Shown: positions 49-31,212, counted from the first letter of the stretch. The stretch: 32,000 nt of DNA from Methanococcus maripaludis (GCF_002945325.1 NZ_CP026606.1:480001-512000); one strand, 5' to 3'. Program-made: numbers and translations. Notes: a model not told the origin generated them from the sequence alone.

Positions 49-77
49 TTCTTTAAAACTTTTTTTAGGTGATTTTT

Positions 78-593: not shown

Positions 594-618
594 GTGGTTT
601 AAAATGTAGGTGTAAATT

Positions 619-936: not shown

Positions 937-951
937 TGGTGGTGAGTTTAT

Positions 952-1292: not shown

Positions 1293-1297
1293 AACTA

Positions 1298-2029: not shown

Positions 2030-2040
2030 GGTGATATTTC

Positions 2041-2520: not shown

Positions 2521-2525
2521 TTGAA

Positions 2526-2966: not shown

Positions 2967-2977
2967 AAGGTGATTTT

Positions 2978-3103
2978 ATGGGACAGTATGCAAAAGGATG
3001 CTACACAAGTTTAATAATTTGCACTGCTTTAGTGGTTTTCTCATATATTTCAGGATTTTTGACAGTGAACTTCAGTGTTCTCAGGGATCTTGTGGGGCTA
3101 TAA
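2978..3103 (+). CDS. Small membrane protein, 41 aa (MGQYAKGCYTSLIICTALVVFSYISGFLTVNFSVLRDLVGL), not in the ORF track
   Basis: ATG at 2978 follows AAGGTGAT (2968-2975). One TM helix. Stop at 3101-3103 is 3 nt before the next ATG. Confidence 0.5.
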   Translation: MGQYAKGCYTSLIICTALVVFSYISGFLTVNFSVLRDLVGL

Positions 3104-3106
3104 CCC

Positions 3107-3646: not shown

Positions 3647-3687
3647 TTTATGACTGGTACCCATTTTTTTAGTTTTTTTTATTGTCA

Positions 3688-3733
3688 GGTACCACTAGTA
3701 CCGCCAGTAACGGAAGTATCTGCCAGTACCCAA
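3688..3733. repeat. Five degenerate 9-10 bp periodic repeats with a GTAC-like core (GGTACCACT AGTACCGCC AGTAACGGA AGTATCTGCC AGTACCCAA)
   Basis: Read directly. A sixth GGTACC is at 3656. Lies in the 128-nt gap upstream of the ATPase gene. The same stretch is also an open 37-aa frame (3650-3763). Confidence 0.5.
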
Positions 3734-3774
3734 ACCCCGGGATTTTGGCATTTTAAGGTATAGGGGGTCTAAAA

Positions 3775-5127
3775 ATGGTACGTATTAATCTAGGCATTGG
3801 AAGGGCAGATCCTACAAAAAGATTTGGAGAAAGAACTAAAAGAACTTTAGACCTTAAAAACGATGAAGCAAACCATATTACTCTTCTAGGAAAGTCAGGT
3901 TATGGAAAAACCACCATAATGCGTGGAATGATAGAAGAAATTTATTCGAGTTATTCCGATGCAGGCATTCCGCCAATAATTATTGTAATTGAAAGGAAAG
4001 TTGACACTTCAAAACCTAAGAAAGTAGTTGAAATTTATCATGAAGAGTCTGAAAACCTAAGTTCAGCTAAAGCATATCGTAAATATGGTGAAGGAATCTG
4101 GAACTATCTTGAACATTATGTTAAAGAAATTGAAAAGGATAAGGAGCTTAAATATGGTTTAATGGGTGATTTTGCCATTGGTTTTCCAAATATTCTCGGA
4201 AAATACACGAAAATGGCAAGTGACGAAACTAAATCACTTCTTGGACGACATGGTTTAAGTCCTGCAGCATACCCTGCAAGGCGATTTGTGTTTAGACCTC
4301 GAAGAGATCTTGAAAACATTGCTTTTGATAATGGTCCTTTAACTGAAGTGATTAATTCAAAACTTGCTTATCCTGATCTTGCATTTGAAATAATTGCAGA
4401 TATGAATAATTTGGGCGAACAGACCAGATATTCTGCAATTTTAAAGAATATATGGGATATTTCAAAAATTAGGGATCCAAAAGAAGTTTTGTTGATTACT
4501 GAACGTTCTGAAAATCCGAATTCTGGACCCTCTCAGACTTATTTACGAATCGAAGAAACAATGAATCGTTTAAAAACGGATGTACTGTTTACAGGCGATA
4601 TAGATAATTCTTTTTTAACAAAACTTACAAATAAAAAAATCAATATTCTCGATTTTTCACAAAATTCCGAACTAGAAACTTATGAAGAATGTTTAATTTT
4701 TAAATTAGTCGTTCAAAATGCAATAAACGTTGCAATAAAATACAGAATTCCAGTATTTTTCGTAGTGGATGAAGTTCAAAACTTTATGAAAGATAAAAAT
4801 GGAAAATGGGCAATTGATAAAATTTTAAGAGAAGGACGTTCTTTATGTATCAATTTGATCTGTGCGACACAGTACACCGATAATCTCCCAAAAGATATCT
4901 TGATTGGTTCGAGCCATATTGGAATAATGGGAAAATTAGCCTCAAATACCGATACAAAAACTCTTGAGAAATTAATTCCTGATTTTAGAGATGTCGTTGA
5001 TTTTGATGAACCAGGAAGTCTTTCAGAATGGGAAAACATGAAAAGAAAACTTCGATTTAGGGGTTATTTTTCATATAATAAAGATTACACGGAACATATT
5101 GAATACAGGCAACCACAGAGCTTGTAG
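3775..5127 (+). CDS. P-loop ATPase of the HerA/FtsK/VirB4 class
   Basis: Walker A LLGKSGYGKTT, Walker B PVFFVVDEVQNF, and REGRSLCINLICATQ resembling the HerA/FtsK arginine-finger region. ATG preceded by AGGGGG. Confidence 0.7.
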   Translation: MVRINLGIGRADPTKRFGERTKRTLDLKNDEANHITLLGKSGYGKTTIMRGMIEEIYSSYSDAGIPPIIIVIERKVDTSKPKKVVEIYHEESENLSSAKAYRKYGEGIWNYLEHYVKEIEKDKELKYGLMGDFAIGFPNILGKYTKMASDETKSLLGRHGLSPAAYPARRFVFRPRRDLENIAFDNGPLTEVINSKLAYPDLAFEIIADMNNLGEQTRYSAILKNIWDISKIRDPKEVLLITERSENPNSGPSQTYLRIEETMNRLKTDVLFTGDIDNSFLTKLTNKKINILDFSQNSELETYEECLIFKLVVQNAINVAIKYRIPVFFVVDEVQNFMKDKNGKWAIDKILREGRSLCINLICATQYTDNLPKDILIGSSHIGIMGKLASNTDTKTLEKLIPDFRDVVDFDEPGSLSEWENMKRKLRFRGYFSYNKDYTEHIEYRQPQSL

Positions 5128-5136
5128 GTGATTTTT

Positions 5137-5901
5137 TTGGGTTGGTTCGATATCCTTAAAATAAAAACTAAAAAAAGTGGCCCTGATCCAGGAAGTAAAG
5201 GATCTGAAAATAATGAAGAAATTGAAAATGATGAAACTGAAGATGAAAAACCGGGAACTTTCAACGTTATTGGAAAAGTAAAAAAGAAAAAAGAAGAATA
5301 TAATGCAGAAAGAGAAGCATATGACTCCCTTGCTCCATATTTGTGCAGACAAAAACTCTTAATTTGGCATAATGGATCCGGTGCGAAGGTTTTTGGTTAT
5401 CCACATGCAGTAATTCCCGATGAAGGAACTTACAAAATATTATACAAAAATAAAGCCACGGATTGGCTTGAAGATTTAATAATAACTATAAAATCAACTC
5501 TTTTTAATTATAAACGACATTACGCAGTTGTTTATGCCCCTAAATCTTGCGTGGACGTTTCTGAAGACATAATAATGTTTTTTGTGGATCACTTCAGGGA
5601 TGATAAATACGCAAATTTTGTGAAATATGCAGTTCCTCTCGAAGCTGATGATCCAAGACAAAGAGTGTCATGGATTGTTGAACGGAAACGTGCTGAGGCT
5701 TATGAAGTAATGGTTGAAAATTTATTATCTGAAGATATTCCAAACCTTGTCGATGCTGCGTTATACATTAATCCTACAATGAAAATGTACAAAGGAAGTG
5801 AAAAGGAAAGCAGCAGGAAGAGCACAAAAGAAAAAAGCTTTGAAGGCGGGGAATTTTCATTTGATAATGCCATTAATAGAATGAAAAATGAAATGATGTA
5901 A
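5137..5901 (+). CDS. Hypothetical protein with charged low-complexity N- and C-terminal regions
   Basis: ORF-track frame 5128-5901. The GTG at 5128 is inside the SD AGGTGAT, so TTG at 5137 is likelier. Confidence 0.55.
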   Translation: MGWFDILKIKTKKSGPDPGSKGSENNEEIENDETEDEKPGTFNVIGKVKKKKEEYNAEREAYDSLAPYLCRQKLLIWHNGSGAKVFGYPHAVIPDEGTYKILYKNKATDWLEDLIITIKSTLFNYKRHYAVVYAPKSCVDVSEDIIMFFVDHFRDDKYANFVKYAVPLEADDPRQRVSWIVERKRAEAYEVMVENLLSEDIPNLVDAALYINPTMKMYKGSEKESSRKSTKEKSFEGGEFSFDNAINRMKNEMM

Positions 5902-5911
5902 AGGTGATTTT

Positions 5912-6253
5912 TTGGCTGAAGAAATTGAAGGAGATTTTGTAGTTCCAAAACCAGAAAATACTGAAGGAGAAGAAATTCCTCCGGATTCTAAACCCATTTT
6001 TGATATTCCAACTGGAAGATCCAAGGCAGATTCTGAGGCTGATGAAGATGAATTTGATGAACGAACTCCAAAAACTGTAGGAAGAAAAAAGTCAGTTTAT
6101 TTAGAAAAGGTAGTAAATAAAACAATTATCGATATTTTGGAAGATTTAAAAGAGATTCATTCTGTTTCATACCAAAAAGAAGTTAAAAGAACTTCAAAAA
6201 AGATTGGAACGAATATAATGTTTTTAAAAGAAACTTTGAAAGGGAATATTTAA
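5912..6253 (+). CDS. Acidic hypothetical protein
   Basis: TTG start after AAGGTGAT. D/E-rich N-terminal half and basic C-terminal half. Confidence 0.5.
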   Translation: MAEEIEGDFVVPKPENTEGEEIPPDSKPIFDIPTGRSKADSEADEDEFDERTPKTVGRKKSVYLEKVVNKTIIDILEDLKEIHSVSYQKEVKRTSKKIGTNIMFLKETLKGNI

Positions 6254-7006
6254 TCAATCAATATTCCATTTTTCTTTTAATTTAACTAATGTTCCGTCAT
6301 TTTCCATTTCAAGAAGTGCAGCGTCAATAGATTTTTTTAATTCTGGATTAGTGTTATCTATTGCGATTGCAATGTATATAATGTCAAATTTATCTCCAAT
6401 AATTTTTAATTCAGAATTATATTTTTGAATTAAATAAAGGGATGTGAGATGATCAGTCACTTCTGAATCGATTTTGCCAGATAACAAATCTTTGTGGATA
6501 TCATTTTGATTTTCATAACTTATAATATCAAAATCCATAGATTTTGAAAGCGATTCTAACCATTTTTCCTCTATTGAATCTTTCAAAACACCAACCGATT
6601 TATGTTCAAGGCATTTTATTCCAACACATTCACTATTTTGTTTAACAAGTATTGAAGAATATGTGTATGCATACTGTCTTGAAAAATCCATTTTCAACTG
6701 TCTTTCTGGTGTTCTTCCAATATATCCTATTCCACAATCAACGTTACCCTCGGAAACTGCATCTAGCAGTTCTGAAAATGAATAGGCTATAAATTCAGGT
6801 TTTAAATCGAGTCTTTTCGATATTTCATATATCAATTCTACTTCAAAGCCTTTAAATTCTCCATCTTCAAGATATGAAGTTGGTGCTAGATCCGTACAGG
6901 CTCCAACATTTAGGACCCGATTGTTGGATTCTGTGTTTTTTTCAGTACAGCCTGAAAAGATTATTAAAAATATCGTTGAGATTATTAGAATTTTGGGATT
7001 AAACAT
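6254..7006 (-). CDS. Family-3 (amino-acid/polar) ABC-type substrate-binding lipoprotein, orphan
   Basis: Lipobox-like IIFSGC after an N-terminal helix. Typical SBP-3 pattern GFEVELIYEISKRLDLKPEF...SELLDAVSEGNVDCGIGYIGRTPERQLKMDFSRQY. No permease or ATPase gene nearby. Confidence 0.8.
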   Translation of the reverse strand: MFNPKILIISTIFLIIFSGCTEKNTESNNRVLNVGACTDLAPTSYLEDGEFKGFEVELIYEISKRLDLKPEFIAYSFSELLDAVSEGNVDCGIGYIGRTPERQLKMDFSRQYAYTYSSILVKQNSECVGIKCLEHKSVGVLKDSIEEKWLESLSKSMDFDIISYENQNDIHKDLLSGKIDSEVTDHLTSLYLIQKYNSELKIIGDKFDIIYIAIAIDNTNPELKKSIDAALLEMENDGTLVKLKEKWNID

Positions 7007-7028
7007 TCTTTTACTCCATTGCCTGATT

Positions 7029-7046
7029 TTTTGGATTAATCCAGAA
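7029..7046. promoter_or_regulatory. Inverted repeat TTTTGGA-TTAA-TCCAGAA (contains the perfect 12-bp palindrome TGGATTAATCCA); candidate recombinase or regulator site
   Basis: Read directly. Same half-site as the cluster at 8195-8274 on the other side of the methyltransferase gene. Confidence 0.3.
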
Positions 7047-7201
7047 TATAATATATATTGAATATTTGATCTAATTTTCTAAATGGATTAGATAGATATA
7101 TTAATATATTGGTTAACTGGGGACAAAATGTTAAATGAATTTAGTTGGGAGGTGATCCTTTGTAAATATCAATATTGAAATAACTCCGAAAAGGTGAGAT
7201 T

Positions 7202-8188
7202 TTGTTGGAATTAAATGAAATATACAATACAGACTTTTTTGAAGGTGTTAAGTCCCTTCCTGATAATTCAGTCGATTTAATCATTGCAGATCCTCCATAC
7301 TACAATATCAAAGGGGATTTTGATTTTAAATTGACTTTTGATGAATGGAAATTACTGCACAAAAGAATGGCAGAAGAATTTAAACGAGTTTTAAAGTTAA
7401 ACGGCAGTATTTTACTTTATGGTCATGCGAGAAACATTGCATACCAACAGGTTGTTTTTGATGAGTTATTTTTCCTTGAAAATAACCTTGTATGGCATAA
7501 AACAGACTGCCAAACTCGAAAAAACATTAAAGGATACCGCTGTTTTGCACCAGTTACTGAAAGAATTTTATTTTATTCGAATGAATATCGAAAAAACAAT
7601 AATTCGCTGGTAAATCCAATGTATAAAGAATATGTGGAAGTACTTACACCAATTATTGAATATTTCATGCAAGAAAAAGAAAAAATCATGAAATTAAAAG
7701 GTTTTTCAACAAATGGTGAATTTATTAGGTTCATGGACGAATACACTGGAAGTACAACTGCTGCAAGACATTATTTCTCATGGAGTCAATGGATGTTCCC
7801 ATCTGAAAAAACGTATGCTAAATTACAAGACATTGGTAATGGAGTTCTCGAAAAAGAATATCCTTTATTTAAAAAGCAATATGCAGAACTAAAGACTGAG
7901 TTTGAACGCACAAGAAGATATTTTGTAAATTCTGAACATACTGATGTTTTACTATTTTCTCAAGAAAGTCATATCACGAGAAAATATAATCACCCGACAC
8001 AAAAGCCCCCAAAATTAACAAAGATGTTGATTGAATCTACAACAAAACCTGAAAGTTTAGTTTTAATTCCTTTTGCAGGTTCCGGTGTAGAATGTGCATG
8101 TTGTAAGGAACTTCAAAGAAATTTTATTGGTTTTGAAATTGATGAAAAATATTGTGAAGTTTCCAGGAATCGAATTAATGAAGTTTAA
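7202..8188 (+). CDS. Beta-class DNA methyltransferase (N6-adenine or N4-cytosine)
   Basis: Motif IV DLIIADPPYYN near the N-terminus, HPTQKPPKLTKMLIE, and motif I IPFAGSGVECACC near the C-terminus (IV-to-I order = beta class). TTG start after AAGGTGA. Confidence 0.85.
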   Translation: MLELNEIYNTDFFEGVKSLPDNSVDLIIADPPYYNIKGDFDFKLTFDEWKLLHKRMAEEFKRVLKLNGSILLYGHARNIAYQQVVFDELFFLENNLVWHKTDCQTRKNIKGYRCFAPVTERILFYSNEYRKNNNSLVNPMYKEYVEVLTPIIEYFMQEKEKIMKLKGFSTNGEFIRFMDEYTGSTTAARHYFSWSQWMFPSEKTYAKLQDIGNGVLEKEYPLFKKQYAELKTEFERTRRYFVNSEHTDVLLFSQESHITRKYNHPTQKPPKLTKMLIESTTKPESLVLIPFAGSGVECACCKELQRNFIGFEIDEKYCEVSRNRINEV

Positions 8189-8194
8189 TTTTTG

Positions 8195-8274
8195 AGTCCA
8201 AAAAACATCTGAATTTTGGACTTTTGAATAACTATACTATTTTATTATTTTTTTTGGATTTATTGGTCCAAAAA
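8195..8274. promoter_or_regulatory. Cluster of inverted TCCAAAA/TTTTGGA half-sites (candidate res-like site and/or terminator)
   Basis: AGTCCAAAA (8195-8203) - 10 nt - TTTTGGACT (8214-8222). TTTTGGA - 8 nt - TCCAAAA within 8254-8274. A further TTCCAAAAA lies near 8293. Located immediately upstream of the serine recombinase gene. Confidence 0.35.
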
Positions 8275-8338
8275 CTCATTTTAAAAATCAAATTCCAAAA
8301 ATTATGAATTTTATAAGTTTTTAGACTAGGTGGTAGTT

Positions 8339-8926
8339 ATGATCATAGGTTATGCAAGGGTATCTACTAAGGATCAGAAACTTGACAGGCAGATTGATGA
8401 ACTGAAATCTTTTGGATGCGAAAAAATATTTTTAGAAAAGATTTCTGGAACTAAGAAAATTAGACCCGAATTTGATAAAATGCTAGAAATGTTACGAAAG
8501 AATGATTTAGTTGTTGTAAGTGAACTTACAAGGCTTTCTAGAAGTACAAAAGATTTAATTGACATAATGAACCGTTTTGAACAGATGGATGTTTCAGTGA
8601 AAAGTTTAAAAGAGGCATGGCTTGATACATCGACTGCTCATGGTAAATTACTTTTTACAATTTTTGCAGGCCTTGCAGAATTTGAGCGAGATTTAATTTC
8701 TGAAAGAGTAAAGTCTGGATTAAATGCTGCAAGATCTCGTGGAAAACTAGGTGGAAGGCCTACGGTAAGGAATGAAAAAATAAATCTGGCTTTAAAAATG
8801 TATGATTCAAAAGAATATTCGATAAATGAGATTTTAAAGGCTACAGGAATTAGTAAAAGTACACTTTATAATTATTTGGAAAAACGGAGAGAATGTATTA
8901 TTCAAAATCTAAATCATAATATTTAA
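8339..8926 (+). CDS. Small serine recombinase (resolvase/invertase family)
   Basis: MIIGYARVSTKDQKLDRQ catalytic-Ser N-terminus, conserved VVSELTRLSRS and FAGLAEFERDLISERVKSGL, and a C-terminal HTH (ILKATGISKSTLYNYL). ATG at 8339 follows AGGTGG; the track start GTG 8330 lies in the SD. Confidence 0.9.
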   Translation: MIIGYARVSTKDQKLDRQIDELKSFGCEKIFLEKISGTKKIRPEFDKMLEMLRKNDLVVVSELTRLSRSTKDLIDIMNRFEQMDVSVKSLKEAWLDTSTAHGKLLFTIFAGLAEFERDLISERVKSGLNAARSRGKLGGRPTVRNEKINLALKMYDSKEYSINEILKATGISKSTLYNYLEKRRECIIQNLNHNI

Positions 8927-8950
8927 ATTACGTAAAGTAAAGGATATAAT

Positions 8951-9388
8951 ATGACTAAAAATGATAACATTATTATAATTACTGCTTGTGGTGGTAGCAA
9001 AGAAGGTAAGCCCCAAAAAGCAGGAACATTATACAAATCTTCAAGAATACGGCATTTGTATAAAAAAGCATTAGAATTTGATGTTCCATTTTATATTTTA
9101 AGTGCTAAATATGGATTAATTAACTCAGAAAAAATAATAGACCCCTACAATCAAATAATGACTAAAGAACGGGCATTATTTCTTAAACCTTCGGTTAAAA
9201 AAACGCTTGAAGACTTTGAATATGTTGTGTTCTTCGAAGGGGGTGCCCGAAAAGAATATCGTGATTTAATTCATGAATCTACGAATGAATTGGGCTTGCA
9301 GTTAATTGCTTTCGGGTATAAGACTATGGGAGATATTGGGGAATTGAAGAATATACTGGGGGGAATAAATGGCTTCAAACAAACTTGA
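8951..9388 (+). CDS. Small alpha/beta protein with a YaaA/DUF6884-like motif; first gene of the four-gene operon
   Basis: N-terminal IIIITACGGSK strand-loop and ILSAKYGLINSEKIIDPYNQIM, which resembles the LSxxYG(V/L)...PY motif as I remember it from YaaA/DUF328 and DUF6884 proteins (unverified). Overlaps the next gene by 20 nt. Confidence 0.4.
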   Translation: MTKNDNIIIITACGGSKEGKPQKAGTLYKSSRIRHLYKKALEFDVPFYILSAKYGLINSEKIIDPYNQIMTKERALFLKPSVKKTLEDFEYVVFFEGGARKEYRDLIHESTNELGLQLIAFGYKTMGDIGELKNILGGINGFKQT

Positions 9389-11048
9389 AAATGTAAAAGA
9401 ATATATAAAAGATCCTGGAAAGCATAAAGCGCTTGTAAACCATTATTTATTAATATCTAATGAATTAAACGATAATAAAGAGTTATTGGAAACGTTATTA
9501 AATTTTAACATGAATGAACTTCCAAAAGCTATTTTAAGTAGTACTCCATTACAACTTAAAAATCTCAAAGGGGGCCCCCTGTCAGACTTTCCTTTAGAAA
9601 TAAAAAGTTGTTTGAAAAATAACAGAGTTTTTACTACTCAAAAAGAACTAATTAAAAACTTAGACTTAGACAAGGTTACTAATCTTTTAAAATCTGAAAA
9701 AATAGAATTGATTGGTATCGATGAGTCAAAGGTTGAAATACCTAGAGCAGGCTGTCTTTTTGCATATTTAAAAAGTGTTGCTTTTAGAATAAGTCTCGAT
9801 AATGAAAAACAGATTGAATCAATAGGGCCCATGGTAAATAAATTTAGAGTGACAATTAAAGATGAAGAAGATGCTGAATTTGAAAAAGAATCCCAGTTAA
9901 TAGGTTATTTAAGAAACATGTTTGTTGCATGGGTTGCCATTAAAAATTCACTTGAAAATGGATATAAACCAATAGTATTTTTACACGGGCCGTTAGTTAG
10001 GGCTATCGGAGGATTTACAGATATTGTGTTTGAAAAAGATACGTTAATAGATCTATTTACGATTTCCGAAGATATCGACGTTAATGAAAATTCGGATTTT
10101 TCCATATCTGGAAAAGAAATTATTAAAGAATTTCACGAAAATGAATCTAAAAATTGGCATAAGATCTATTCCAAAACAATTAAACGGCTAAACGATCCGG
10201 ACTATTCTGGAAAAGATCTTTGGAAACAGGCTTTACCTGTGGATATTACTGAAGAAGATGAACCTTTGAAATCATTTGAAGAACGAGAATATTATCCTGG
10301 AATTTCCATATATTTTTGGATGCTTGGAAAATTGTATGATGTATGTAAAGAAAATAAGGTACCACTCACTGCCACAGTGGAATCGATAAGTAGATCTACT
10401 GAATTTTTACAGTACGTTTTACCCACATTATTAGATAAAACTCCCGATATCCTCCCTGAAGACATTATGGAATTTGAAAAGGGATATGATAAAATAATTA
10501 AAATACGAAATGATGATGGGCGAAAAGAAAACTTTTACCGAAAGACTTACGGATTATTAAAAAATCTAAACATCACTGATTCCGTAGTAACCTCATATTT
10601 ATTAAATGAATCGGAATACACAACACCCATCCGAACGTGTAGGTATCAACCTCGTAGTATGTATTTAAATGCGTTAGGCCATCGGGAATTGGGCATAAAA
10701 GACAATTATAGTCCTATTTTGGAACATTACTTTAAAGCGTCCAATAAAATATTTTTTTCATATTTAAAAACTACTCCACTAAGGGAGCCCATAAGGGTAG
10801 AATTTTTTAATATTTATGATAATTACGATGAAATCATTGGTCTTAATTATCTATTTTCATTGATGTATCCCGATTATGGGATACCTGTGATGATATTTTA
10901 TGCAGATAAAATTGCTAGAACTCATAAAAATTATTTACAAATAATTTTGGACAGCATTTCATACGATATGCTTGTAAAAGGGGAATTTGATATTGAAAAA
11001 TTTTTAAGATTTGGAAATCATTTCACAAGAAACTTTTTTGAAAGGTGA
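9369..11048 (+). CDS. NurA-like (RNase H-fold) nuclease candidate
   Basis: Motifs in NurA order: LIGIDES, IVFLHGPLV (DGSL position), TATVESISRST, GIPVMIFYADKIAR. Abuts a HerA gene. Confidence 0.5.
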   Translation: MASNKLENVKEYIKDPGKHKALVNHYLLISNELNDNKELLETLLNFNMNELPKAILSSTPLQLKNLKGGPLSDFPLEIKSCLKNNRVFTTQKELIKNLDLDKVTNLLKSEKIELIGIDESKVEIPRAGCLFAYLKSVAFRISLDNEKQIESIGPMVNKFRVTIKDEEDAEFEKESQLIGYLRNMFVAWVAIKNSLENGYKPIVFLHGPLVRAIGGFTDIVFEKDTLIDLFTISEDIDVNENSDFSISGKEIIKEFHENESKNWHKIYSKTIKRLNDPDYSGKDLWKQALPVDITEEDEPLKSFEEREYYPGISIYFWMLGKLYDVCKENKVPLTATVESISRSTEFLQYVLPTLLDKTPDILPEDIMEFEKGYDKIIKIRNDDGRKENFYRKTYGLLKNLNITDSVVTSYLLNESEYTTPIRTCRYQPRSMYLNALGHRELGIKDNYSPILEHYFKASNKIFFSYLKTTPLREPIRVEFFNIYDNYDEIIGLNYLFSLMYPDYGIPVMIFYADKIARTHKNYLQIILDSISYDMLVKGEFDIEKFLRFGNHFTRNFFER

Positions 11049-11053
11049 TTTTT

Positions 11054-12937
11054 TTGAAAAAAATAGTTATTGGTGCAAGTTTAGGTTCAACTTCGGCATT
11101 TAGATTTAAGTTTATATTAACTGATGATGAATTTGAAAAAGAAAATTTAGTTTATAATTATGTGGAATTAAACCTTAATGGGCAGGTTGATGAAGTACTA
11201 ATCGCGAAAATTATTGATGTTAAAAAAGAAAATCCATTGGTAACTCCAGAACAGGCTGGGGCTTTGGCAAAGGATGTATTGTCCCAAATAAATTCTTTTA
11301 CAATTCCTCAAAGATTTACATATGCAGTAGCCGAATGTGAAGTTGTAGGTATTCTAAAAGAGGGAAAACTAGAAATGAATAGAAAATCTATCCCTCCTGC
11401 AACCGATATATTTCCAATAAGTCAAAAAAGTATAGAACAGCTATTTCATGATAAAAGTCCAAATTATTTACCTATCGGCGGAATGGAAAGCTTTAAGGGC
11501 TCTTATGGTACCCCAATTACCATAAATGGGGATGAATTAGTTACAAAACATTTTGCTATTTTTGGAATGACGGGATCTGGAAAAACAAACACAGCTGCAA
11601 AAGTTATTGAAGAATTAGCCATTAGGGGATATAATATTGTACTATTTGATCCCCATGATGATTATCAAAATATTAACGATTTTTCAGGTATTAAAGATTA
11701 TTTTGAGAAAAATAATATTGATTGGGATATAATTAAGAATAATTTCGCAGAAAAAAATATTTCTGAGGAAGAAATATTCTCATTTTTGCAGACTGTATCT
11801 GTTGTATATAATATTCCCATAGTGGGATATCTTTTGAAAATATCTGAAAATGGAAAAGCCTCATTAAATGAGTTATTAATGAAAATTTTAGGCGACGATA
11901 CATTGATTGAATGTATTAAAAATAGTGCCATATTCCAAAGACAGATGAATTTCGCAGAAAAACCGAATGATACAGAAATACCTACTGAAGAAAATAAAAA
12001 GTATGTTTCAACATACAATATATTTCCAGAACTTAGAGATTATGGTAAAAATCATGGCACATTTTCTAAACGACTTATGGAATGCTTTTTAGGGGAAAAA
12101 TTTACGGGGCCACAAGAAAGAATATTGGCATTGTGTAACTCGGATCAGAAAGGAATAGACTATATTAATGAGTTAAAAATCGTATGTGAACCAGAAGAAA
12201 GCAATGGAAAAGCTAAAAATACCCAGGACTCTACAAAAATGGCTTTAGCAGGTAAATTTACCACACTAGAAACAATTTACCACAATGCGTCAAAAGCGTC
12301 AAAAGCTTGCGACATTGAAGAGTTGATGAAAAATATTACTGATTCGGAATCGAAATCCAGGATACACCGTATTTCTTTATCCTCCCTTTCAGAAAGTATG
12401 AGAAAAACGACCGTTTATGCAGTTGTAAATTATATTTTTAATGAATATAAATATAATAACGAGTTAAAGGACAAAACCCCTGTTTTATTTATTTTAGAAG
12501 AAGCAAGAAGTTTAATTCCGAAAAATACACGAGAACATATTCCAAGTCTATCTGCAGTAGAGGCCCTTAGGGACCTTGCATATGAGGGTAGGAAGTTTAA
12601 ATTGGCATATGGGTTAATTTCTCAAAAACCATCTACTATTGATGAAGAGGTAGCCTCCCAGTGTAATACATTAATATTGCAACAGTTAAAAAGCCCTGAT
12701 GACCAAAGTTATGTTAAAAAGGTAACTGAAGGGATGACAGAGGAAGAATTATCTATATTAAAAAATATAGGAACGGGAAAAGCAGTTGTAACCGGAACTG
12801 CAATAAAATCAACAGTATTAATTGATGTTTTTAGAAGATATAGTAAAGAAGGTGTTAAAGAACCAAGGCCATTAAGCGACATTGTAATAAATGAGGTTAA
12901 TGATATTAAGAATAAATTAAAATTTGAGGAAAATTGA
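11054..12937 (+). CDS. herA: HerA-family hexameric ATPase/translocase
   Basis: Walker A FGMTGSGKTNT, Walker B VLFILEEARSL, and EGRKFKLAYGLISQKPSTIDEEVASQCNTLILQQLKSPDD, typical of HerA/DUF87. The track start GTG 11045 is inside the SD AGGTGAT, so TTG at 11054 is likelier. Confidence 0.85.
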   Translation: MKKIVIGASLGSTSAFRFKFILTDDEFEKENLVYNYVELNLNGQVDEVLIAKIIDVKKENPLVTPEQAGALAKDVLSQINSFTIPQRFTYAVAECEVVGILKEGKLEMNRKSIPPATDIFPISQKSIEQLFHDKSPNYLPIGGMESFKGSYGTPITINGDELVTKHFAIFGMTGSGKTNTAAKVIEELAIRGYNIVLFDPHDDYQNINDFSGIKDYFEKNNIDWDIIKNNFAEKNISEEEIFSFLQTVSVVYNIPIVGYLLKISENGKASLNELLMKILGDDTLIECIKNSAIFQRQMNFAEKPNDTEIPTEENKKYVSTYNIFPELRDYGKNHGTFSKRLMECFLGEKFTGPQERILALCNSDQKGIDYINELKIVCEPEESNGKAKNTQDSTKMALAGKFTTLETIYHNASKASKACDIEELMKNITDSESKSRIHRISLSSLSESMRKTTVYAVVNYIFNEYKYNNELKDKTPVLFILEEARSLIPKNTREHIPSLSAVEALRDLAYEGRKFKLAYGLISQKPSTIDEEVASQCNTLILQQLKSPDDQSYVKKVTEGMTEEELSILKNIGTGKAVVTGTAIKSTVLIDVFRRYSKEGVKEPRPLSDIVINEVNDIKNKLKFEEN

Positions 12938-13962
12938 TGATTCCATTTTTTGTGTTAGATCGACCTGCTAGTTTGGAAATATTGAAGGGACTTTTATTGA
13001 ATTACCCTGGACAAACATTTGGTTTAATGACGCATGCAAACGTTTCGGATCGTTTTACTGAGTTATTTTGTCAGTATCCTTATACAACAGAAACAAAATA
13101 TTACGATGAAAGCGTAGATATTTCAAAACTTGTAGATATTGACAATAATTTGATAAAAATTTCCGATAGTGGAGCTTTTCAAAAAAATGGAAAAGTACAT
13201 CCATATCCTGAACTTTTTCAAAAATATAACGCGCTTGGCGTACATTATGGAATTATTAATGATGTACTTCAGGATATGGATAACACTATTAAAAGTGCTA
13301 TCAAAGCCATAAATACTTACGATGACATGAAAAAAGAATGTAACTTCGAACTCATGGGTGTTGCACAAGGAAAAACTCCTGAAGAGTATTGTAAATGTTA
13401 TGGCGAACTCGAAAGTATGGGTTATAAAACAATTGCAGTTGGCGGGCTTTTAAAAAGAAATGGGGATTCCAACTATGTAATGATGAATGGGGAAGTGAGA
13501 ATGAAAAACATTGTTACAGCCATTAAAGAGAAATACGGGCCCGAAAAATTATTTACTCTTGGAATATACCACCCAAATAGGCATGATTTACTCGAAAGTT
13601 TAGATATTTGGGGGGCGGATTATAAAGGCTGGCTTTTTCATTATGATGAATATTATTATACTTCCAAAAAATTATTGGAAGAATCTGGAAAGTATACTGA
13701 ATCGATAGAAAATGCTTATAAACACTTTATGAAATGTAAAAGTAATCATGTGGCTGAAAGATCTCCTGAAAATCGAAAAATGTTTTTAAACTCCAAAAAA
13801 TTATTGGATGCGGAGTTAAAAAAAATAGATACTTCGTTACAGGAATTTAGATATCGGGAAGTTAGGAAAACTTTGGAAGAAAAGATAGTTTTAAAAATGA
13901 TTTCTAAAGGAATAGACGAATCAATATTCGAAAAAATCATGCCTGGTCAGGAAGTATATTGA
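12937..13962 (+). CDS. Short tRNA-guanine-transglycosylase-superfamily protein, DpdA-like (no zinc site, no PUA domain)
   Basis: Ordered TGT motifs ISDSGAFQ, MGVAQG, TIAVGGLL, FTLGIYHPN...WGADY. 341 aa. The ATG shares one nucleotide with the HerA stop (TGATG). SD GAGGA upstream. Confidence 0.6.
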   Translation: MIPFFVLDRPASLEILKGLLLNYPGQTFGLMTHANVSDRFTELFCQYPYTTETKYYDESVDISKLVDIDNNLIKISDSGAFQKNGKVHPYPELFQKYNALGVHYGIINDVLQDMDNTIKSAIKAINTYDDMKKECNFELMGVAQGKTPEEYCKCYGELESMGYKTIAVGGLLKRNGDSNYVMMNGEVRMKNIVTAIKEKYGPEKLFTLGIYHPNRHDLLESLDIWGADYKGWLFHYDEYYYTSKKLLEESGKYTESIENAYKHFMKCKSNHVAERSPENRKMFLNSKKLLDAELKKIDTSLQEFRYREVRKTLEEKIVLKMISKGIDESIFEKIMPGQEVY

Positions 13963-14200
13963 TTTTCGGTTTTTCTGCAGGCATATAATAAGAATATTCT
14001 GAAAAAAACCTTATTTTTTTAGAAAAATTTCTAACCTTATTTTTTTCATAAACTCAGGCTATTTTTAATCATGATTTACTTTGAAAATATGAAAAAGTAT
14101 AATCTTAAACTTTTCCACCCATTCACAAAAAACCCTTCATCGAAAATTTAATATTTTAGCCGCCTTAAATTAAATTTAATTATATTTATCGAGGGGAATT

Positions 14201-15532
14201 GTGGGAAAATTTGATAATTATTTAGAAAAGAATTATGAAAAAATATTTTCAATTTTAGAAATAATAATTTCTTTTAAATTTGGGTTTGTTACAATCCTTG
14301 TTCCAATGATTTTAATGTTAATCATGATTACTTCTTTTATCTATTTTTTTAGGATTGATACGTTACTTATAGTTGCAGTTGGAATAAGCGAGGCTTTGAA
14401 ATTTTCTGTTGCTTTTTATATAGTGTCATTTATTGTATATATCCTCTTTCTGACCAAATTTCCAACTTATAAAGATAACCCATTCAATAATTTTAATATT
14501 GCAGACATTCTGATTGCCATATTTCTATTTGCAATTCTTGTATCCTTTATGATGTCAAATTATACACTGATGGGTCCCGAATTCTACAAAAACGTTATTA
14601 AAATAATATATAGCTCTGAATTCTACGACAATATTCTTAAACTAATATCGGGACTTGGAACTTTTATTGTGGCCGCTGTAGCAGTAGTAAGTGCTGGTCA
14701 AGGAAAAGAACAGATTAAAGAAATGAAAGAACAGAGAAAATTACAACATGATCCCGAATTAATTGCAGAAAATGAATTTAAAATTTATTTTCATAATTGC
14801 AATGAATTTTTACATGAAATAATAGGTAAAGATGATGAGTATGATATCAAAAGGTTTGAAGATTCGATATATTCTTGGTCAAACTCATCAGAAAAACCTG
14901 AAAACTACCAAAAAATGATTTTAAATGAAATTAATGATCCAAATGATGAAATAACTCAATTTCAGAAACTTATAAACTTAGAAACTCATTTTGAAGATGA
15001 TTTCGGAGTAAAAATTTATAATGTTGGAAACGGGGTTGCAAAAAAAATAAATTACAGGTGGGAGTGTGATTTTGAGGAATTATATTCTTCAATTTTGGAA
15101 AATAATCGTATAAATGATCATAGGGTATATTCAGACTGCAGTGAGGGAGAGAATGCCTATTTTATGGGTGACACCATGATTCTAAATTGTAATTCGTATT
15201 TAGCGAGTGGTAATTACAATCTACTACTACCACACAGAACCCCTGATGATTTTATAATTATACCCTTACCAAAAGATCTTTTTAAAGCTTTAGGATATTT
15301 ATTTAAAACTGCTGATCTAACTGACATCTCTTTAAAAATATATTTAAAATTAGATTACACGGGAATAGACAATACTCCCCATTCTAAAACATATTTATTA
15401 GAAAGTGACAGTTATCTTTTTAATTGGTATTCTGGAATAATTGAGGCATATAGTCCACATTTTTATGAATTTTTCTTCAAAATCAGTGAAATAAAAGAAG
15501 AAATTGAAGAAACCACCAAATCCTCAAAATAA
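14201..15532 (+). CDS. Membrane protein (about 5 N-terminal TM helices) with an uncharacterised C-terminal soluble domain
   Basis: GTG start after GAGGGG. Hydrophobic N-terminal 170 aa. No recognisable motifs in the remainder. Confidence 0.55.
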   Translation: MGKFDNYLEKNYEKIFSILEIIISFKFGFVTILVPMILMLIMITSFIYFFRIDTLLIVAVGISEALKFSVAFYIVSFIVYILFLTKFPTYKDNPFNNFNIADILIAIFLFAILVSFMMSNYTLMGPEFYKNVIKIIYSSEFYDNILKLISGLGTFIVAAVAVVSAGQGKEQIKEMKEQRKLQHDPELIAENEFKIYFHNCNEFLHEIIGKDDEYDIKRFEDSIYSWSNSSEKPENYQKMILNEINDPNDEITQFQKLINLETHFEDDFGVKIYNVGNGVAKKINYRWECDFEELYSSILENNRINDHRVYSDCSEGENAYFMGDTMILNCNSYLASGNYNLLLPHRTPDDFIIIPLPKDLFKALGYLFKTADLTDISLKIYLKLDYTGIDNTPHSKTYLLESDSYLFNWYSGIIEAYSPHFYEFFFKISEIKEEIEETTKSSK

Positions 15533-15548
15533 CCCATTTAAACCAATT

Positions 15549-15617
15549 CAACTTTAAAAAGAGTAATTTAAGATAAAAATTCTTAAAATTAAAAGAATAA
15601 GGTTATTTTAAATTTCT
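15549..15617. repeat. About 70-nt intergenic repeat, copy 1 (3' flank of the OLD gene)
   Basis: About 84% identical by hand alignment to 25970-26037: TCAACTTTAAAAAGAGTAATTTAAGATAAAAATTCTTAAAATTAAAAGAATAAGGTTATTTTAAA vs TCAACTTAAAAAGAGCAATTTGAGCTAAGAATTATTAAAATTAAAATGATAAGGTTATTTTAAA. Confidence 0.7.
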
Positions 15618-17455
15618 TAATTATTAGCTGAATTTAATTTTTCTGAAATCCAATTAAATATCCTATCGACATTTTTCAATGTTTCTTTGCTTAAATCGTC
15701 TTTTGAAATTTTTCCTTTATCCACATTATTTAAAAAATTCTGTGCAAGTATCGTTTTACTTTTACCAATCTTTTTAAGATAAGTAGATAAACTTTTACCA
15801 ATTTTTGCAGATTCATCTTCTAGAACTAATTTTTTAAAATCCACTTCAGCGAATACATCTTCAATATCTTTGTCGTCTTGATCTAAAATAAAAAGGAACC
15901 GATCTTTTGGAATCAATAATTTTTCCGTTAATTCTTTTTTATAACCTTTTCCATCCCTATCCTTATCAAAAATAAAAAATGGATCTAATTTCCAACCTAC
16001 TAAAATGGACGCTATTGAAGGTATGTTTTTCCCGCAGCCCGGAATCATCTCAAAATCCAATTTAGAATCGAATAATTTTTTAAATGCTTGAATATATAAA
16101 TAGTCAGTAATTCCTTCCACCACAAAACTATTCTTTTTATCTGCCCTTAATCCACCCGCCATGTTTTCCCCAATTGCAGTCAATATTGGGGTAATTGTAT
16201 CTTTTTTTGAGTTTGCCCAGCATTTATTTTGAATTTTCGTTCCTTTTTTTTCATCCCATTCGACAAGTTTGATCCTATGTAATTCTTTTAATAAATAAGG
16301 TGAATGGGTTGTATATATTATGCCCATATTGCTCGAAGCATCTTCTAACTTATGGATAATGTCCTCCTGAGCTTGTGCGTGTAAAAATAGTCCTGGTTCA
16401 TCGATTAAAAGAATATTATTTTTTCCTTCTTTGGATCGTGCAGTAATTCGGATATAAAATGCCAAATGCCACTGTTTACCCTTACTTCTTTGTTCTGGCA
16501 TGTATGAGGTGTTATCTTCTTTTACCCAAAATTCAACATTGTTATTATCCCATGTAATCTCTAAATTAGATTCACTTTGTGTCCAATATTTACCATAATC
16601 TTTTTGTAAATCTAAATTAATAGCTCCATTGTGATTCTTTTTTCCCTGACGATCTGTACTTTTTATAAGATTAATATCAAGATTACTTACCTTTTGAAGA
16701 TCTTTAATAAATTCATCAGTTTCCAAATTAGCAAAAGGTATTATATTTGGAATTTTTGAGTCTTTATATGTTTCAAAAATTATAAAATTTGGAATATATT
16801 CTTTTTTTACAACATTTTCTATATATTTTTTTATTAATTCATCATAGTCTGAAAATTCTAGAGCGTATTTTTTGGCATCATCAAATAACGCATTTAACCG
16901 AGTTTTGGTTTCTTCTTCAAAATCTTCAATTTTTGATTTCCCGTCTTTAATTTTTTGATCCATTAATTTTCTAAATTCTTCCGCATTACTGAATACTGTT
17001 GGAAATACCACATCAACGTGTTTCCCAATATAATTAATCTCGTTTTCGATTTCCACGATAATATCAATAATTTCACTGTTATAGTTCTCCAAACATTCTG
17101 ATATGTCATTACTTTCTAAAAAATAGTTTGAACCTACTTTTTTTACCTCTAATTCAATATCTTCCGAAAAACAGTTTTTTAAATAGAGATCAGGCATTTC
17201 TTTTATTTTTTTAACTTCTTCAATATTTATTTTAAAAAATAATGAAATTTCAGGATCCAATTTACTAGATATTGGTCTTGCACTTTCTCGAATTGTTTTT
17301 CCCACGTTAAAATCTTCCAAAGCTTCCAGAACTGAGGTTTTACCACTTTCATTCATTCCAGCTAAAACTGTAATGTTATCGGAGGATAAATAAACTTCAC
17401 CGCTATCGTTAATTGATTTGTAGTTTTTAATTCTAAATTTTGTTAAAGATACCAT
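15617..17455 (-). CDS. OLD-family nuclease (N-terminal ABC/AAA15 ATPase fused to C-terminal TOPRIM)
   Basis: Walker A LAGMNESGKTS, Walker B ILLIDEPGLFLH, H-loop IYTTHSP, TOPRIM Glu FVVEGITDYLY and DxD FIFDKDRDG. ATG at 17455 follows GGGTG; the track GTG at 17467 is upstream of it. Confidence 0.8.
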   Translation of the reverse strand: MVSLTKFRIKNYKSINDSGEVYLSSDNITVLAGMNESGKTSVLEALEDFNVGKTIRESARPISSKLDPEISLFFKINIEEVKKIKEMPDLYLKNCFSEDIELEVKKVGSNYFLESNDISECLENYNSEIIDIIVEIENEINYIGKHVDVVFPTVFSNAEEFRKLMDQKIKDGKSKIEDFEEETKTRLNALFDDAKKYALEFSDYDELIKKYIENVVKKEYIPNFIIFETYKDSKIPNIIPFANLETDEFIKDLQKVSNLDINLIKSTDRQGKKNHNGAINLDLQKDYGKYWTQSESNLEITWDNNNVEFWVKEDNTSYMPEQRSKGKQWHLAFYIRITARSKEGKNNILLIDEPGLFLHAQAQEDIIHKLEDASSNMGIIYTTHSPYLLKELHRIKLVEWDEKKGTKIQNKCWANSKKDTITPILTAIGENMAGGLRADKKNSFVVEGITDYLYIQAFKKLFDSKLDFEMIPGCGKNIPSIASILVGWKLDPFFIFDKDRDGKGYKKELTEKLLIPKDRFLFILDQDDKDIEDVFAEVDFKKLVLEDESAKIGKSLSTYLKKIGKSKTILAQNFLNNVDKGKISKDDLSKETLKNVDRIFNWISEKLNSANN

Positions 17456-17523
17456 CAATACACCCACGAAATACTTTCAAATGGATATCCATTTATAAAA
17501 AAGAATATAAATAATTTAATCAT

Positions 17524-18411
17524 TTGGTTATGGATTTTATAATTAAATTAAATGTGGGACTTATGATGGAAAAAGTTAAAGAAATTAATTTGAATGGATT
17601 CTTTGTAGAATTTGAGAGACTTGTACCTAATGAATATTTGGATAGTAAAGATTTTGAACTATTTTTAAAAAAAGAGGATATTTTGAAAGCTTGGAAAATC
17701 TGTCTGGATGATGCAATAAAGCATGATAGGCCTCCGATATTAATTAGTGTTATTCCTTATGTTCATACCTCTTTTGAAAGCCTAATGCGATTAATGTTCG
17801 TTAGTAACGAACCCAGATTTTTCGAAATTATTCCAAAAATTTTGGAAGATTATATTCGTTGGAATTATAACAAAAAAGAAAAAAAGGAAGAATTAGATTT
17901 TACGCTTTTGTTTGAAGAAATGGAAAAAATATGGGATGAAAAAAAATTTATCGATATCAAAACTAAAATTGAAAAATTAATTGGAAAAAGTGAACCTGAA
18001 AACCCCTTAAACCCTAAACTTAAAGATACTGAATCTAAACTTAAAGATACTGAATCTAAACTTAAAGATACTGAATCTAAACTTAAAGATACTGAATCTA
18101 AACTTAAAGATACTGAATCTAAACTTAAAGATACTGAATCTAAACTTAAAGATACTGAATCTAAACTTAAAGATACTGAATCTAAACTTAAAGATACTGG
18201 ATTTTTGAGTAAAAATGCAAAATCAAAAAATATATTATTAAAAATATGGGATTTTTTGTGGGAAGAAACTACCCAATGGAAAATTCCAAAATTACTAGTT
18301 ATAATACTCGTAGCGTTATTATTGATAATTATTTATAAAATTACGTTTAAATGGGACGAATCCTTTGAATTTATAAAAAATTTATCGATTATATATAGTA
18401 GTCTTAGTTAA
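17524..18411 (+). CDS. Tail-anchored protein with (KLKDTES)x8.7 tandem repeat
   Basis: Helical N-terminal domain, perfect heptad-length repeat, C-terminal TM LLVIILVALLLIIIY. The true start may be ATG at 17530 or 17563. Confidence 0.6.
   Translation: MVMDFIIKLNVGLMMEKVKEINLNGFFVEFERLVPNEYLDSKDFELFLKKEDILKAWKICLDDAIKHDRPPILISVIPYVHTSFESLMRLMFVSNEPRFFEIIPKILEDYIRWNYNKKEKKEELDFTLLFEEMEKIWDEKKFIDIKTKIEKLIGKSEPENPLNPKLKDTESKLKDTESKLKDTESKLKDTESKLKDTESKLKDTESKLKDTESKLKDTESKLKDTGFLSKNAKSKNILLKIWDFLWEETTQWKIPKLLVIILVALLLIIIYKITFKWDESFEFIKNLSIIYSSLS
18016..18199 (+). repeat. Perfect 21-bp tandem repeat AAACTTAAAGATACTGAATCT, 8 full copies plus 16 nt
   Basis: Counted directly. No substitutions between copies. 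In frame within 17524-18411. Confidence 0.95.
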
Positions 18412-18951: not shown

Positions 18952-19365
18952 ATGTCAGCAGAAATAGAAGAAAAAGTTTTAAGAAATCTAAAAAGCCACG
19001 AAGAATTGAGCGATATTTTAAAATCAACACTTTATAAAATGTCTTTAGAAGGATTTGAAGCATTCGAAGACTACAAAAATTACGCAAATCCAGATTCATT
19101 CTCAAACGTTGTTAAAAAAATTGAATGGGTCGAACTGGTTGAAGATGACAGGTTGTCAGTTCACAAATTGCAGAAAATCAAATTACCCGACCTTTCAACA
19201 AAAACCACAGAAATTATGTCAGAAGGCAATTTAACAATAGATCAGTTCTTAGTTGGATACATTGTCCCAGAAGATAAAGTTATTGAAGAAATAAAAAAAG
19301 GAAACGAATTATATTATGTAAAAGACGCTGATCTATTTTACAAAATCAATGTTGATGAATTTTAG
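18952..19365 (+). CDS. Conserved 137-aa acidic protein of unknown function, copy 1
   Basis: ATG after AAGGTGA. 136/137 aa identical to 28488-28901 despite 23 nt differences. Confidence 0.8.
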   Translation: MSAEIEEKVLRNLKSHEELSDILKSTLYKMSLEGFEAFEDYKNYANPDSFSNVVKKIEWVELVEDDRLSVHKLQKIKLPDLSTKTTEIMSEGNLTIDQFLVGYIVPEDKVIEEIKKGNELYYVKDADLFYKINVDEF

Positions 19366-31202: not shown

Positions 31203-31212
31203 GGTGTTAAAC

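Follow-up and report, generated by a model that had tools for sequence, protein, structure and literature searches.

In the Dpd system of Salmonella Montevideo, which comprises DpdA/B/C for modification and DpdD-K for restriction, the three aspartates of the transglycosylase DpdA, an enzyme that inserts preQ0 into DNA, serve as general acid/base, in base binding and as nucleophile (PMC10164549), while in archaeosine synthesis the C1 domain (DUF5591) of the synthase ArcS carries a PCxxxKPYxxS motif that is proposed to be catalytic for preQ0 (7-cyano-7-deazaguanine) conversion on tRNA (PMC5699537). DpdC, a DUF328 enzyme that turns dPreQ0 into dADG, and ArcS both act on the nitrile of preQ0 that has already been placed in nucleic acid (PMC10164549, PMC5699537). 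A further system, which was predicted in 2026 and is related to BREX, has the seven components PglZ, DUF6079, STAND NTPase, DUF4007, HerA/FtsK, GNAT and a member of the tRNA-guanine transglycosylase (TGT) family, with no DpdC homologue reported (PMC12839542). The subject of the present analysis is a cassette of four genes at positions 8951-13962 of a 32,000-nt stretch of Methanococcus maripaludis DNA (GCF_002945325.1 NZ_CP026606.1:480001-512000; hereafter the window), in which a DpdA-like transglycosylase and a protein of the DUF6884 family are joined to a HerA-NurA pair.

With high probability this cassette is a defence or exclusion system in which a DNA-acting transglycosylase is coupled to HerA-NurA. 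Whether it represents, in an undescribed form, deazaguanine-type modification linked to restriction is in our estimate evenly balanced. An earlier note on this DNA had stated that no system with this combination of genes is known to have been described, and a search of the open full-text literature, with subscription-only papers lying outside it, indeed found no description of a cassette that combines DpdA, deazaguanine or a transglycosylase with HerA/NurA; a 2026 survey of archaeal immunity mentions none of HerA, NurA and Dpd.

The four overlapping genes and their families

The window has a G+C content of about 30% and its products are 100% identical to NCBI proteins of M. maripaludis. The cassette consists of four plus-strand open reading frames (ORFs; 8951-9388, 9369-11048, 11045-12937 and 12934/12937-13962), which code for the following products:

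8951-9388, plus strand: DUF6884 protein of 145 aa, YaaA/DpdC/ArcS-C1-like (PF21818; CxxxK with C13 and K17; ILSAKYG)
9369-11048, plus strand: NurA-domain nuclease-like protein of 'type 1', 559 aa (PF09376; 84 homologues)
11045-12937, plus strand: HerA-family hexameric translocase ATPase (DUF87 and PADLOC HerA; Walker A GMTGSGKT, Walker B VLFILEEA)
12937-13962, plus strand: zinc-less DpdA-like transglycosylase of the TGT superfamily, 341 aa (DpdA models, structure model with Foldseek, hhalign)

Genes one and two share 20 nt. The TGA stop of the NurA-like gene (11046-11048) falls within GAAAGGTGAT, right at the possible HerA starts GTG 11045 and TTG 11054, from which HerA would measure 630 aa and 627 aa, respectively, and the A of the HerA stop TGA (12935-12937) is the first base of ATG 12937. 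The TTG at 12934, proposed by the ORF finder as the transglycosylase start, was rejected; as all homologues begin with MIPFF, ATG 12937 is the true start and the protein has 341 aa. Homologues of the cassette genes reach E values of 1e-140 to 1e-220 and the gene order is kept in many unrelated genomes, so that the genes cannot be regarded as chance ORFs.

The transglycosylase is matched by DpdA models only, namely NCBIfam NF041059 (E 2.5e-10, 39.8 bits at a cut-off of 200) and PADLOC DpdA (E 7e-10); the Pfam scan of the window, which included Pfam TGT, gave no match for this protein. A model of the protein built with AlphaFold2 (AF2) on 24 family members (predicted local distance difference test, pLDDT, 89.4; predicted template modelling score, pTM, 0.84) displays a TIM barrel of eight strand-helix repeats followed by three long C-terminal helices. 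When the model was compared with the PDB by Foldseek, DpdA (7ui4) ranked first with E 3.4e-10 and Z. mobilis TGT occupied ranks 2-5, at modest TM-scores of 0.42-0.47 and with other TIM barrels close behind, and the family profile searched against PDB sequences has DpdA as its only match. The relatives P0276 and P0273 and a protein of locus L048 exceed the Pfam TGT threshold, and hhalign aligns the transglycosylase family with such Pfam-TGT-positive relatives at a probability of 99.2% and E 1.6e-19, with all three aspartates in register. As the protein reaches 39.8 of the required 200 bits and lacks a Pfam TGT match, yet relatives pass, it is a member of the superfamily and not a DpdA equivalog.

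The aspartates D78 (in DSGAF), D110 and D229 (in WGADY) are invariant in 24 of 24 transglycosylase sequences and align with Asp95, Asp130 and Asp256 of DpdA, which makes them the candidate catalytic residues; Phe99 of DpdA is matched as well. The window protein lacks the zinc site CxCxxC...H, as does, in the 24-sequence alignment, its whole clade; P0273 and P0276, two DpdA-like relatives, and the L048 protein have kept it. Neither a PUA domain nor C1/C2 or another tRNA-binding domain was found in the transglycosylase. The protein appears to belong to the DNA-acting side of the TGT superfamily, and we infer DNA to be its substrate. The family is rare, with 113 clusters at E < 1e-30 among 1.84 billion representatives, and a set of 2.9 million viral contigs contains no relative. 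Membership in DpdA4 (DUF6610), a family of archaeal viruses (PMC10516641), was considered and rejected, as the protein does not match that Pfam model.

The product of the first gene matches Pfam PF21818 (E 2.3e-12, 47.6 bits at a cut-off of 30) and PADLOC PDC-M57A (E 4e-12); no paper mentioning the PADLOC candidate PDC-M57 was found. With weaker matches to PADLOC DpdC (E 9e-5) and Pfam YaaA (0.043), the protein belongs to DUF6884 and not to DUF328. The DUF6884 members of the system cross-match DUF5591 (5.5e-5, L044) and YaaA/DUF328 (down to 1.8e-8), the latter being the family of DpdC. On the basis of such profile matches DUF6884 is probably a family related to DpdC. Across the alignments of the system C13 and K17 (CxxxK) and I49-S51..G55 (ILSAKYG) are invariant, and CxxxK and LSAxxG are the DUF6884 motifs that have been flagged by Pfam curators as the likely active site (PMC11701544). 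The AF2 model of the protein (pLDDT 89.4) retrieves YaaA-named and DUF6884 phage proteins from a viral structure library with E values of 4e-10 to 1e-6.

The NurA-like protein matches Pfam PF09376 (E 1.7e-9, 37.9 bits at a cut-off of 21) and many of its 84 homologues have a precomputed NurA domain. With D118/E119, H206-G-P-L, E338 and D513/K514 conserved and the order of the motifs kept, it is a NurA-family protein and putative nuclease. The HerA gene matches Pfam DUF87 (E 3.6e-22) and PADLOC HerA (1.3e-43), and reaches at most 121 bits with the NCBIfam HerA models, the cut-off of the repair-HerA equivalog being 970. Neither Mre11 nor Rad50 is found among the window ORFs scanned. Judged by its scores, the gene is a HerA-family ATPase and not the repair orthologue.

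These results agree with what the earlier note had read from the DNA: the ORFs and all three junctions are as it gave them, and every motif that it quoted is present in the translations. Its likening of the first gene to YaaA/DUF6884 and its HerA and NurA calls are upheld by the profile scores, while its view of the last gene product as a TGT-type TIM barrel, of the DNA-acting DpdA branch and not a tRNA enzyme, fits the AF2 model with DpdA 7ui4 as the best solved match, the exclusive DpdA profile matches and the lack of PUA domain and zinc site.

Recurrence of the cassette and of its core pair

Scanning one genome per species, 39 loci that encode the transglycosylase were collected, and further loci were added by protein look-ups. 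At about 25 loci the transglycosylase gene directly follows HerA, which is itself preceded by the gene for a protein of about 600 aa. The lineages involved, about a dozen from archaea and bacteria, are Thermococcales, Methanococcus, Thermoplasmata, Methanomassiliicoccales, Bathyarchaeia and Aquificota, as well as Dehalococcoidia, Acidimicrobiia, Planctomycetes, Cyanobacteria, Chloroflexia and others. DUF6884 is the first gene of the operon, follows the transglycosylase gene or is fused to it; of the 33 loci that have enough flanking sequence, about 31 show it adjacent or fused to the transglycosylase. In the fusions DUF6884 is located at the C-terminus (for example P0141, P0144 and L051) or at the N-terminus (P0152, P0161), and the true zinc-bearing DpdA-like protein P0273 is likewise fused to DUF6884. 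Transglycosylase and DUF6884 are consequently a paired or fused core. As no recurrent extra component emerged when 134 neighbouring ORFs were pooled and scanned with Pfam, the module seems to be self-contained.

The protein of about 600 aa ahead of HerA exists in two very unlike forms, which both match Pfam NurA. Type 1 is encoded in the window and at L001, L002, L043-L045 and L048-L051, type 2 at most other loci; 13 of 17 type-2 members match Pfam NurA, with a best E of 5e-7. As the direct profile-profile comparison of the two types is not significant (E 0.075), they are united solely via Pfam NurA and gene position.

The core pair is also found with other effectors. The mini Dpd-like clusters of L028 (4206-11203) and L031 (3574-10433) contain a transglycosylase::DUF6884 fusion, a 1330-aa helicase with DpdJ as best match (1e-40), a small PLD nuclease with DpdK as best match (1e-12) and a protein of 395-400 aa without family match. 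A DISARM-like cluster (L021, 2403-11290) consists of DrmA, interrupted by a minus-strand ORF of 535 aa, followed by DrmB (8e-25) and DrmC (2e-13) and a final transglycosylase::DUF6884 fusion, with no methyltransferase within the cluster. At L006, L009, L029 and L039 the core pair is combined with SIR2 and an ORC/Cdc6-like ATPase, and orphan pairs without effector are found among housekeeping genes at L004, L008, L010 and L012, as might be expected for modification modules. It appears that the core pair takes the slot of the modification enzyme in known Dpd-like and DISARM-like systems. As a separate observation, the protein of 210-350 aa that is encoded between the SIR2-ORC/Cdc6 ATPase genes and the transglycosylase gene at the four SIR2 loci matches PADLOC 'CARF6' (down to 4e-30); the two of the four that were scanned have no Pfam match, and a nucleotide-sensor-like domain is unexpected here.

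At L048 the last product of the type-1 NurA-HerA operon is a protein of 616 aa (9735-11585) in which a zinc-bearing TGT (PF01702, 3.6e-17) is fused to DUF5591 (5e-9). The protein takes the place of the transglycosylase gene product, and no DUF6884 gene was called at the locus. It contains PCSQEKPYTRS and, further downstream, LSGLYG, in parallel to the CxxxK and LSAKYG of DUF6884. This variant points to a connection of DUF6884 with preQ0 chemistry, and as DpdC and ArcS both modify preQ0 inserted by a TGT enzyme, the simplest inference is that DUF6884 would act likewise on DNA. A zeta-toxin/AAA_33 kinase-like gene follows the TGT-DUF5591 gene at this locus.

The neighbourhoods of the cassette in other genomes are heterogeneous and mostly contain housekeeping genes. 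Some copies are located beside McrBC or toxin-antitoxin genes, and the T. barossii cassette sits between a PIN/RHH pair and polB.

Strain variability and genomic context in M. maripaludis

Compared with L040, another strain of M. maripaludis, the window shows 98.9% identity over 3244-8906, a drop to 75% or lower thereafter and, over 14107-14200, again 95.7%. The cassette between these segments follows the same four-gene plan, with 68% protein identity for DUF6884 and 66% for the transglycosylase, and its NurA-HerA pair is of type 2 instead of the type 1 of the window, with PADLOC 'HerA Type III coevolved' as the best match of the type-2 HerA (1.5e-75). Diverged and swapped between strains with 99%-identical flanks, the cassette is an exchangeable unit, inside of which the motor-nuclease pair is exchangeable in turn. 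Sequence comparison thus describes a cassette that is accessory and mobile. Its limits are as follows:

8906-8950, no strand: left boundary of the strain-variable cassette (identity drop against L040)
13963-14106, plus strand: 3' untranslated end of the operon (T-runs and AACCTTATTTTTTT repeat; terminator role from sequence only)
14107-14200, no strand: right boundary, a 94-nt segment conserved between the strains (alignment with L040)

The break in identity falls 20 nt ahead of the resolvase stop, and the left boundary is composed of these last 20 nt of the resolvase gene and a 24-nt A/T-rich spacer (TTTAAATT...AAGGATATAAT) ahead of the first start codon, which might act as promoter. At the 3' end of the operon AACCTTATTTTTTT is present twice (14007-14020 and 14033-14046), and the two copies together with the T-runs are likely archaeal oligo-T termination signals. 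A scan of the window for sigma-70 promoters and bacterial terminators, which is not applicable to an archaeon, gave no more hits than shuffles. The segment 14107-14200 is non-coding and single copy in the window, and is located directly after either strain's cassette and before the divergent downstream genes; a recombination boundary or a promoter serving the gene downstream would be possible roles. A 19-nt direct repeat (8865-8883 and 14211-14229) was rejected as a recombination site, as L040 has the left copy only and a chance hit occurs in about one third of shuffles.

The recurrence of the four genes in their order, which the earlier note had left to comparison with other archaeal or bacterial genomes, is observed in many archaea and bacteria. 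Strain-specific, swapped for another type in the sister strain and at 121 instead of 970 bits, HerA-NurA is moreover not the housekeeping pair of the genome, a possibility on which that note had made its reading depend. The defence-island context that it had described applies to this window, but not as a general rule, as the neighbourhoods elsewhere show.

An N6/N4 DNA methyltransferase (7202-8188) and a serine resolvase (8330-8926) lie between a plasmid core and the cassette and are 99% conserved across the strains; they are part of the conserved flank and not of the cassette. The ORF 3775-5127 is a DUF87/AAA ATPase of the pT26-2 family and a t26-6p homologue with Pfam T26-6p domains is located directly left of base 1 (L046 14159-16189), so that the left part of the window (1-6253) is assigned to an integrated plasmid of the pT26-2 family. 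Elements of this type, which possess a conserved and a variable region, are known only from Methanococcales and Thermococcales (PMC6972569). Outside Methanococcus, the cassette has its nearest relatives in Thermococcus, at 54-57% identity. For the pT26-2-family element neither an integrase nor an attachment (att) site is visible in the window, and, as the window has no tRNA genes, no att site was placed.

Downstream of the cassette a 443-aa multi-pass membrane protein without family match (14201-15532) precedes an OLD-family nuclease on the minus strand (15617-17467; AAA_15 and TOPRIM; PADLOC Old 6e-20), and both are absent from L040 at this position. The ORF 17524-18411 encodes nine perfect tandem KDTESKL heptads and then a hydrophobic C-terminal segment. 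An ORF of 137 aa is present twice in the window (18952-19365 and 28488-28901), each copy being 93-95% identical to L040 14400-14805. The gene for a MACPF/perforin-domain protein (29859-31202; Pfam 6.5e-13) overlaps a gene of the endonuclease/exonuclease/phosphatase family (31156-31884), a pairing that is unusual in a methanogen. The mad8-, mad1- and mad3-like PADLOC matches in the window were attributed to similarity at the level of domains alone, and a MADS system was rejected.

Possible function and relation to described systems

In the proposed mechanism the transglycosylase would swap guanine at specific sites of the host DNA for a 7-deazaguanine base, most likely preQ0, which Methanococcus makes for the archaeosine of its tRNA. 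The DUF6884 protein would flip out the inserted base and convert its nitrile to the final mark, while a HerA hexamer together with NurA would load on DNA and degrade what is unmarked; HerA may in addition provide ATPase help, as DpdB does for DpdA. Restriction-modification of this Dpd-like kind, in which transglycosylase and DUF6884 mark self and HerA-NurA degrades unmarked DNA, is in our judgement as probable as all other explanations taken together. In its favour are the place of the core pair in Dpd-like and DISARM-like clusters, the fusions, the existence of orphan pairs and the exchange for the ArcS C1 domain.

A number of observations weigh against it. We know of no ability of HerA-NurA to read a base modification. 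The transglycosylase is far below the NCBI DpdA cut-off and without zinc subdomain, and its substrate could therefore differ. Foldseek with the DUF6884 model against the PDB gave nothing below E 1e-3, recovering neither YaaA nor ArcS, and the DUF6884 family profile has no match among PDB sequences, so that the tie of DUF6884 to YaaA, DpdC and ArcS-C1 is drawn from profile cross-hits and from the L048 swap. Two of ten sampled type-1 loci have DUF6884, NurA and HerA but no intact transglycosylase, of which a remnant of 62 aa is left at L045 (11503-11691) and whose place is taken by unrelated genes at L049 (9673-10803); this is awkward, as strict restriction-modification should not tolerate the loss of the transglycosylase. 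The 134 neighbouring ORFs include no QueC, QueD, QueE or other genes of preQ0 synthesis; the Salmonella Dpd system also draws preQ0 from the queuosine pathway of the host (PMC10164549). Finally, binding to abasic or RNA-base lesions has been reported for the DUF6884 member YfjM (PMC11701544), which would fit a role in base excision or in repair equally well.

As the main alternative, the transglycosylase might attack incoming DNA in a defence that resembles type IV, an explanation that we consider rather unlikely. Removal of guanine, or of a 7-deazaguanine-type base of a phage, would leave a covalent adduct or abasic site that is recognised by DUF6884, and HerA-NurA would enter at the resulting nick and destroy the foreign DNA. 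HerA-NurA requires ends or nicks, triads without TGT such as L045 and L049 would under this scheme be merely inactive and not toxic, and the lack of preQ0 genes in the neighbourhoods scanned also speaks for it. Along the same line, base excision, by way of an intermediate bound covalently to Asp, is the opening step of TGT chemistry (PMC10164549), defence by single DNA glycosylases that cut out modified bases of phages is proven (bioRxiv 10.1101/2025.10.29.685425) and YfjM is among the lesion binders (PMC11701544). On the other hand, in clusters of the DISARM-like and Dpd-like type the core pair stands in for the methyltransferase or for DpdA/C, its orphan representatives among housekeeping genes are easier to reconcile with a harmless mark than with an enzyme that damages DNA, and the ArcS C1 domain that replaces DUF6884 at L048 favours modification of inserted preQ0 over lesion sensing.

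A function in DNA repair or genome maintenance, with HerA-NurA resection, a glycosylase-like enzyme and a lesion binder that remove damaged guanines, perhaps in thermophiles, would be in line with HerA-NurA as the classical archaeal resection pair, with the NCBI name of the window NurA-like protein ('DNA double-strand break repair nuclease NurA'), with the many thermophilic hosts (Thermococcus, Aquificota, Thermotogota), with the housekeeping genes often found nearby and with a proposed action of DUF6884 in repair (PMC11701544). It is made improbable by the patchy, strain-specific distribution of the cassette, its replacement between strains with 99%-identical flanks, the adjoining integrated plasmid, the joining of the same core to SIR2, PLD, DISARM and Dpd effectors, one copy beside McrBC, the lack of Mre11/Rad50 nearby and a HerA far under the repair-HerA cut-off. 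Very improbable in our view is that the cassette is cargo of the pT26-2-type element, modifying the DNA of that element against host restriction or excluding competitors, with HerA as a transfer pump: most other copies are chromosomal with no plasmid genes nearby, there is no copy in the 2.9 million viral contigs, and exclusion of competitors is itself defence, which would differ from restriction-modification by marking mainly in its beneficiary, although the left part of the window is an integrated plasmid of that family (PMC6972569), the cassette has its closest relatives in Thermococcales, the second order that hosts the family, and resolvase and DNA methyltransferase lie between plasmid core and cassette. 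That the TGT-like protein is a transglycosylase of tRNA or other RNA with an incidental link to HerA-NurA is scarcely credible, even if most characterised TGT-family enzymes act on tRNA and the UniRef name of a Thermococcus homologue is 'tRNA-guanine(15) transglycosylase-like domain-containing protein', as PUA, C1/C2 and zinc domains are missing, DpdA models alone match, the gene is translationally coupled to a DNA translocase and nuclease, a linkage that is conserved, and the partners elsewhere are Dpd and DISARM DNA-restriction genes.

Going beyond the cassette, the zinc-less transglycosylase clade and its DUF6884 partner might write a mark derived from 7-deazaguanine that is the common self label of a modular immune family in archaea and bacteria, an idea which we put forward tentatively and hold to be somewhat doubtful. 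The restriction arms of this family would be HerA-NurA, DpdJ/K-like proteins, DISARM and SIR2-ATPase, and the mark could be new, for example an archaeosine-like amidine. To our knowledge, this would be the first case of a deazaguanine mark in the DNA of cellular archaea, and the tRNA-modification chemistry of arcTGT and ArcS would have been re-used on DNA.

If restriction-modification by base exchange is true, such DNA marking would no longer be confined to phages and the large Dpd clusters of bacteria but would reach a compact system of four genes in archaea and bacteria, and HerA-NurA would gain a defined self/non-self or trigger mechanism. DUF6884, which is widespread and common in phages, would receive its first function, via chemistry like that of archaeosine synthase. 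The system also shows that one marking or sensing module can be common to Dpd, DISARM, SIR2 and HerA-NurA effectors. M. maripaludis offers good genetics and natural strain variants by cassette type, which renders the idea directly testable, and a small DNA transglycosylase that works with neither a zinc domain nor a ParB partner could be developed into a means of replacing bases at specific sites.

Among the described systems, the archaeal HerA-NurA pair for end resection and the HerA modules associated with defence or CRISPR have in common with the cassette a DUF87/HerA ATPase with Walker A/B and a translationally coupled neighbour with a NurA domain. In contrast to the resection pair, the cassette pair is not linked to Mre11/Rad50, is strain-specific, remains under the equivalog cut-offs and is joined to a transglycosylase and DUF6884. 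The BREX-related HerA/FtsK-TGT system (PMC12839542) resembles the cassette in that a HerA/FtsK-type translocase is combined with a protein of the TGT family, in its predicted role in defence and in its presence in archaea and bacteria, but PglZ, DUF6079 (BrxC-like), STAND NTPase, DUF4007 and GNAT are all lacking among the window ORFs scanned, while the cassette has NurA and DUF6884.

With archaeosine synthesis (arcTGT and ArcS; PMC5699537), in which a TGT inserts preQ0 and a PCxxxK C1-domain enzyme subsequently modifies the nitrile, the common ground is the proposed logic of two steps, the L048 variant, a TGT fused to the ArcS C1 domain, and the CxxxK and LS(A/G)xYG motifs of DUF6884. The cassette, however, has no PUA or C2 tRNA-binding domains and is linked to a DNA motor and nuclease, and the window protein is DUF6884, which cross-matches DUF5591 weakly via relatives (5.5e-5).

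With Dpd (PMC10164549), of which it would be a compact analogue, the cassette shares a DNA-type TGT enzyme with the same three catalytic aspartates, a companion from the YaaA-like group that includes DpdC and presumably the reliance on host-made preQ0, whereby sister variants of the core pair, L028 and L031 only, carry DpdJ-like and DpdK-like genes. While Dpd is bacterial and has about eleven genes, the cassette has four and occurs in both archaea and bacteria; its transglycosylase forms a separate zinc-less clade, its companion is DUF6884 instead of DUF328 and its effector is HerA-NurA. Since the Pfam and PADLOC scans of window ORFs show no ParB/DndB-like DpdB, PADLOC detects no DpdD-K restriction genes in the window, the equivalog cut-off is failed and the zinc site is missing, the cassette is not a Dpd system. 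Phosphorothioate-based Dnd/Ssp combines marking and restriction in a modular fashion, and like Dnd/Ssp and DISARM the cassette would consist of one conserved marking module that is combined with interchangeable restriction modules, as exemplified by the DISARM-like cluster of L021, with the difference that its mark would be a base exchange and not methylation or backbone sulphur.

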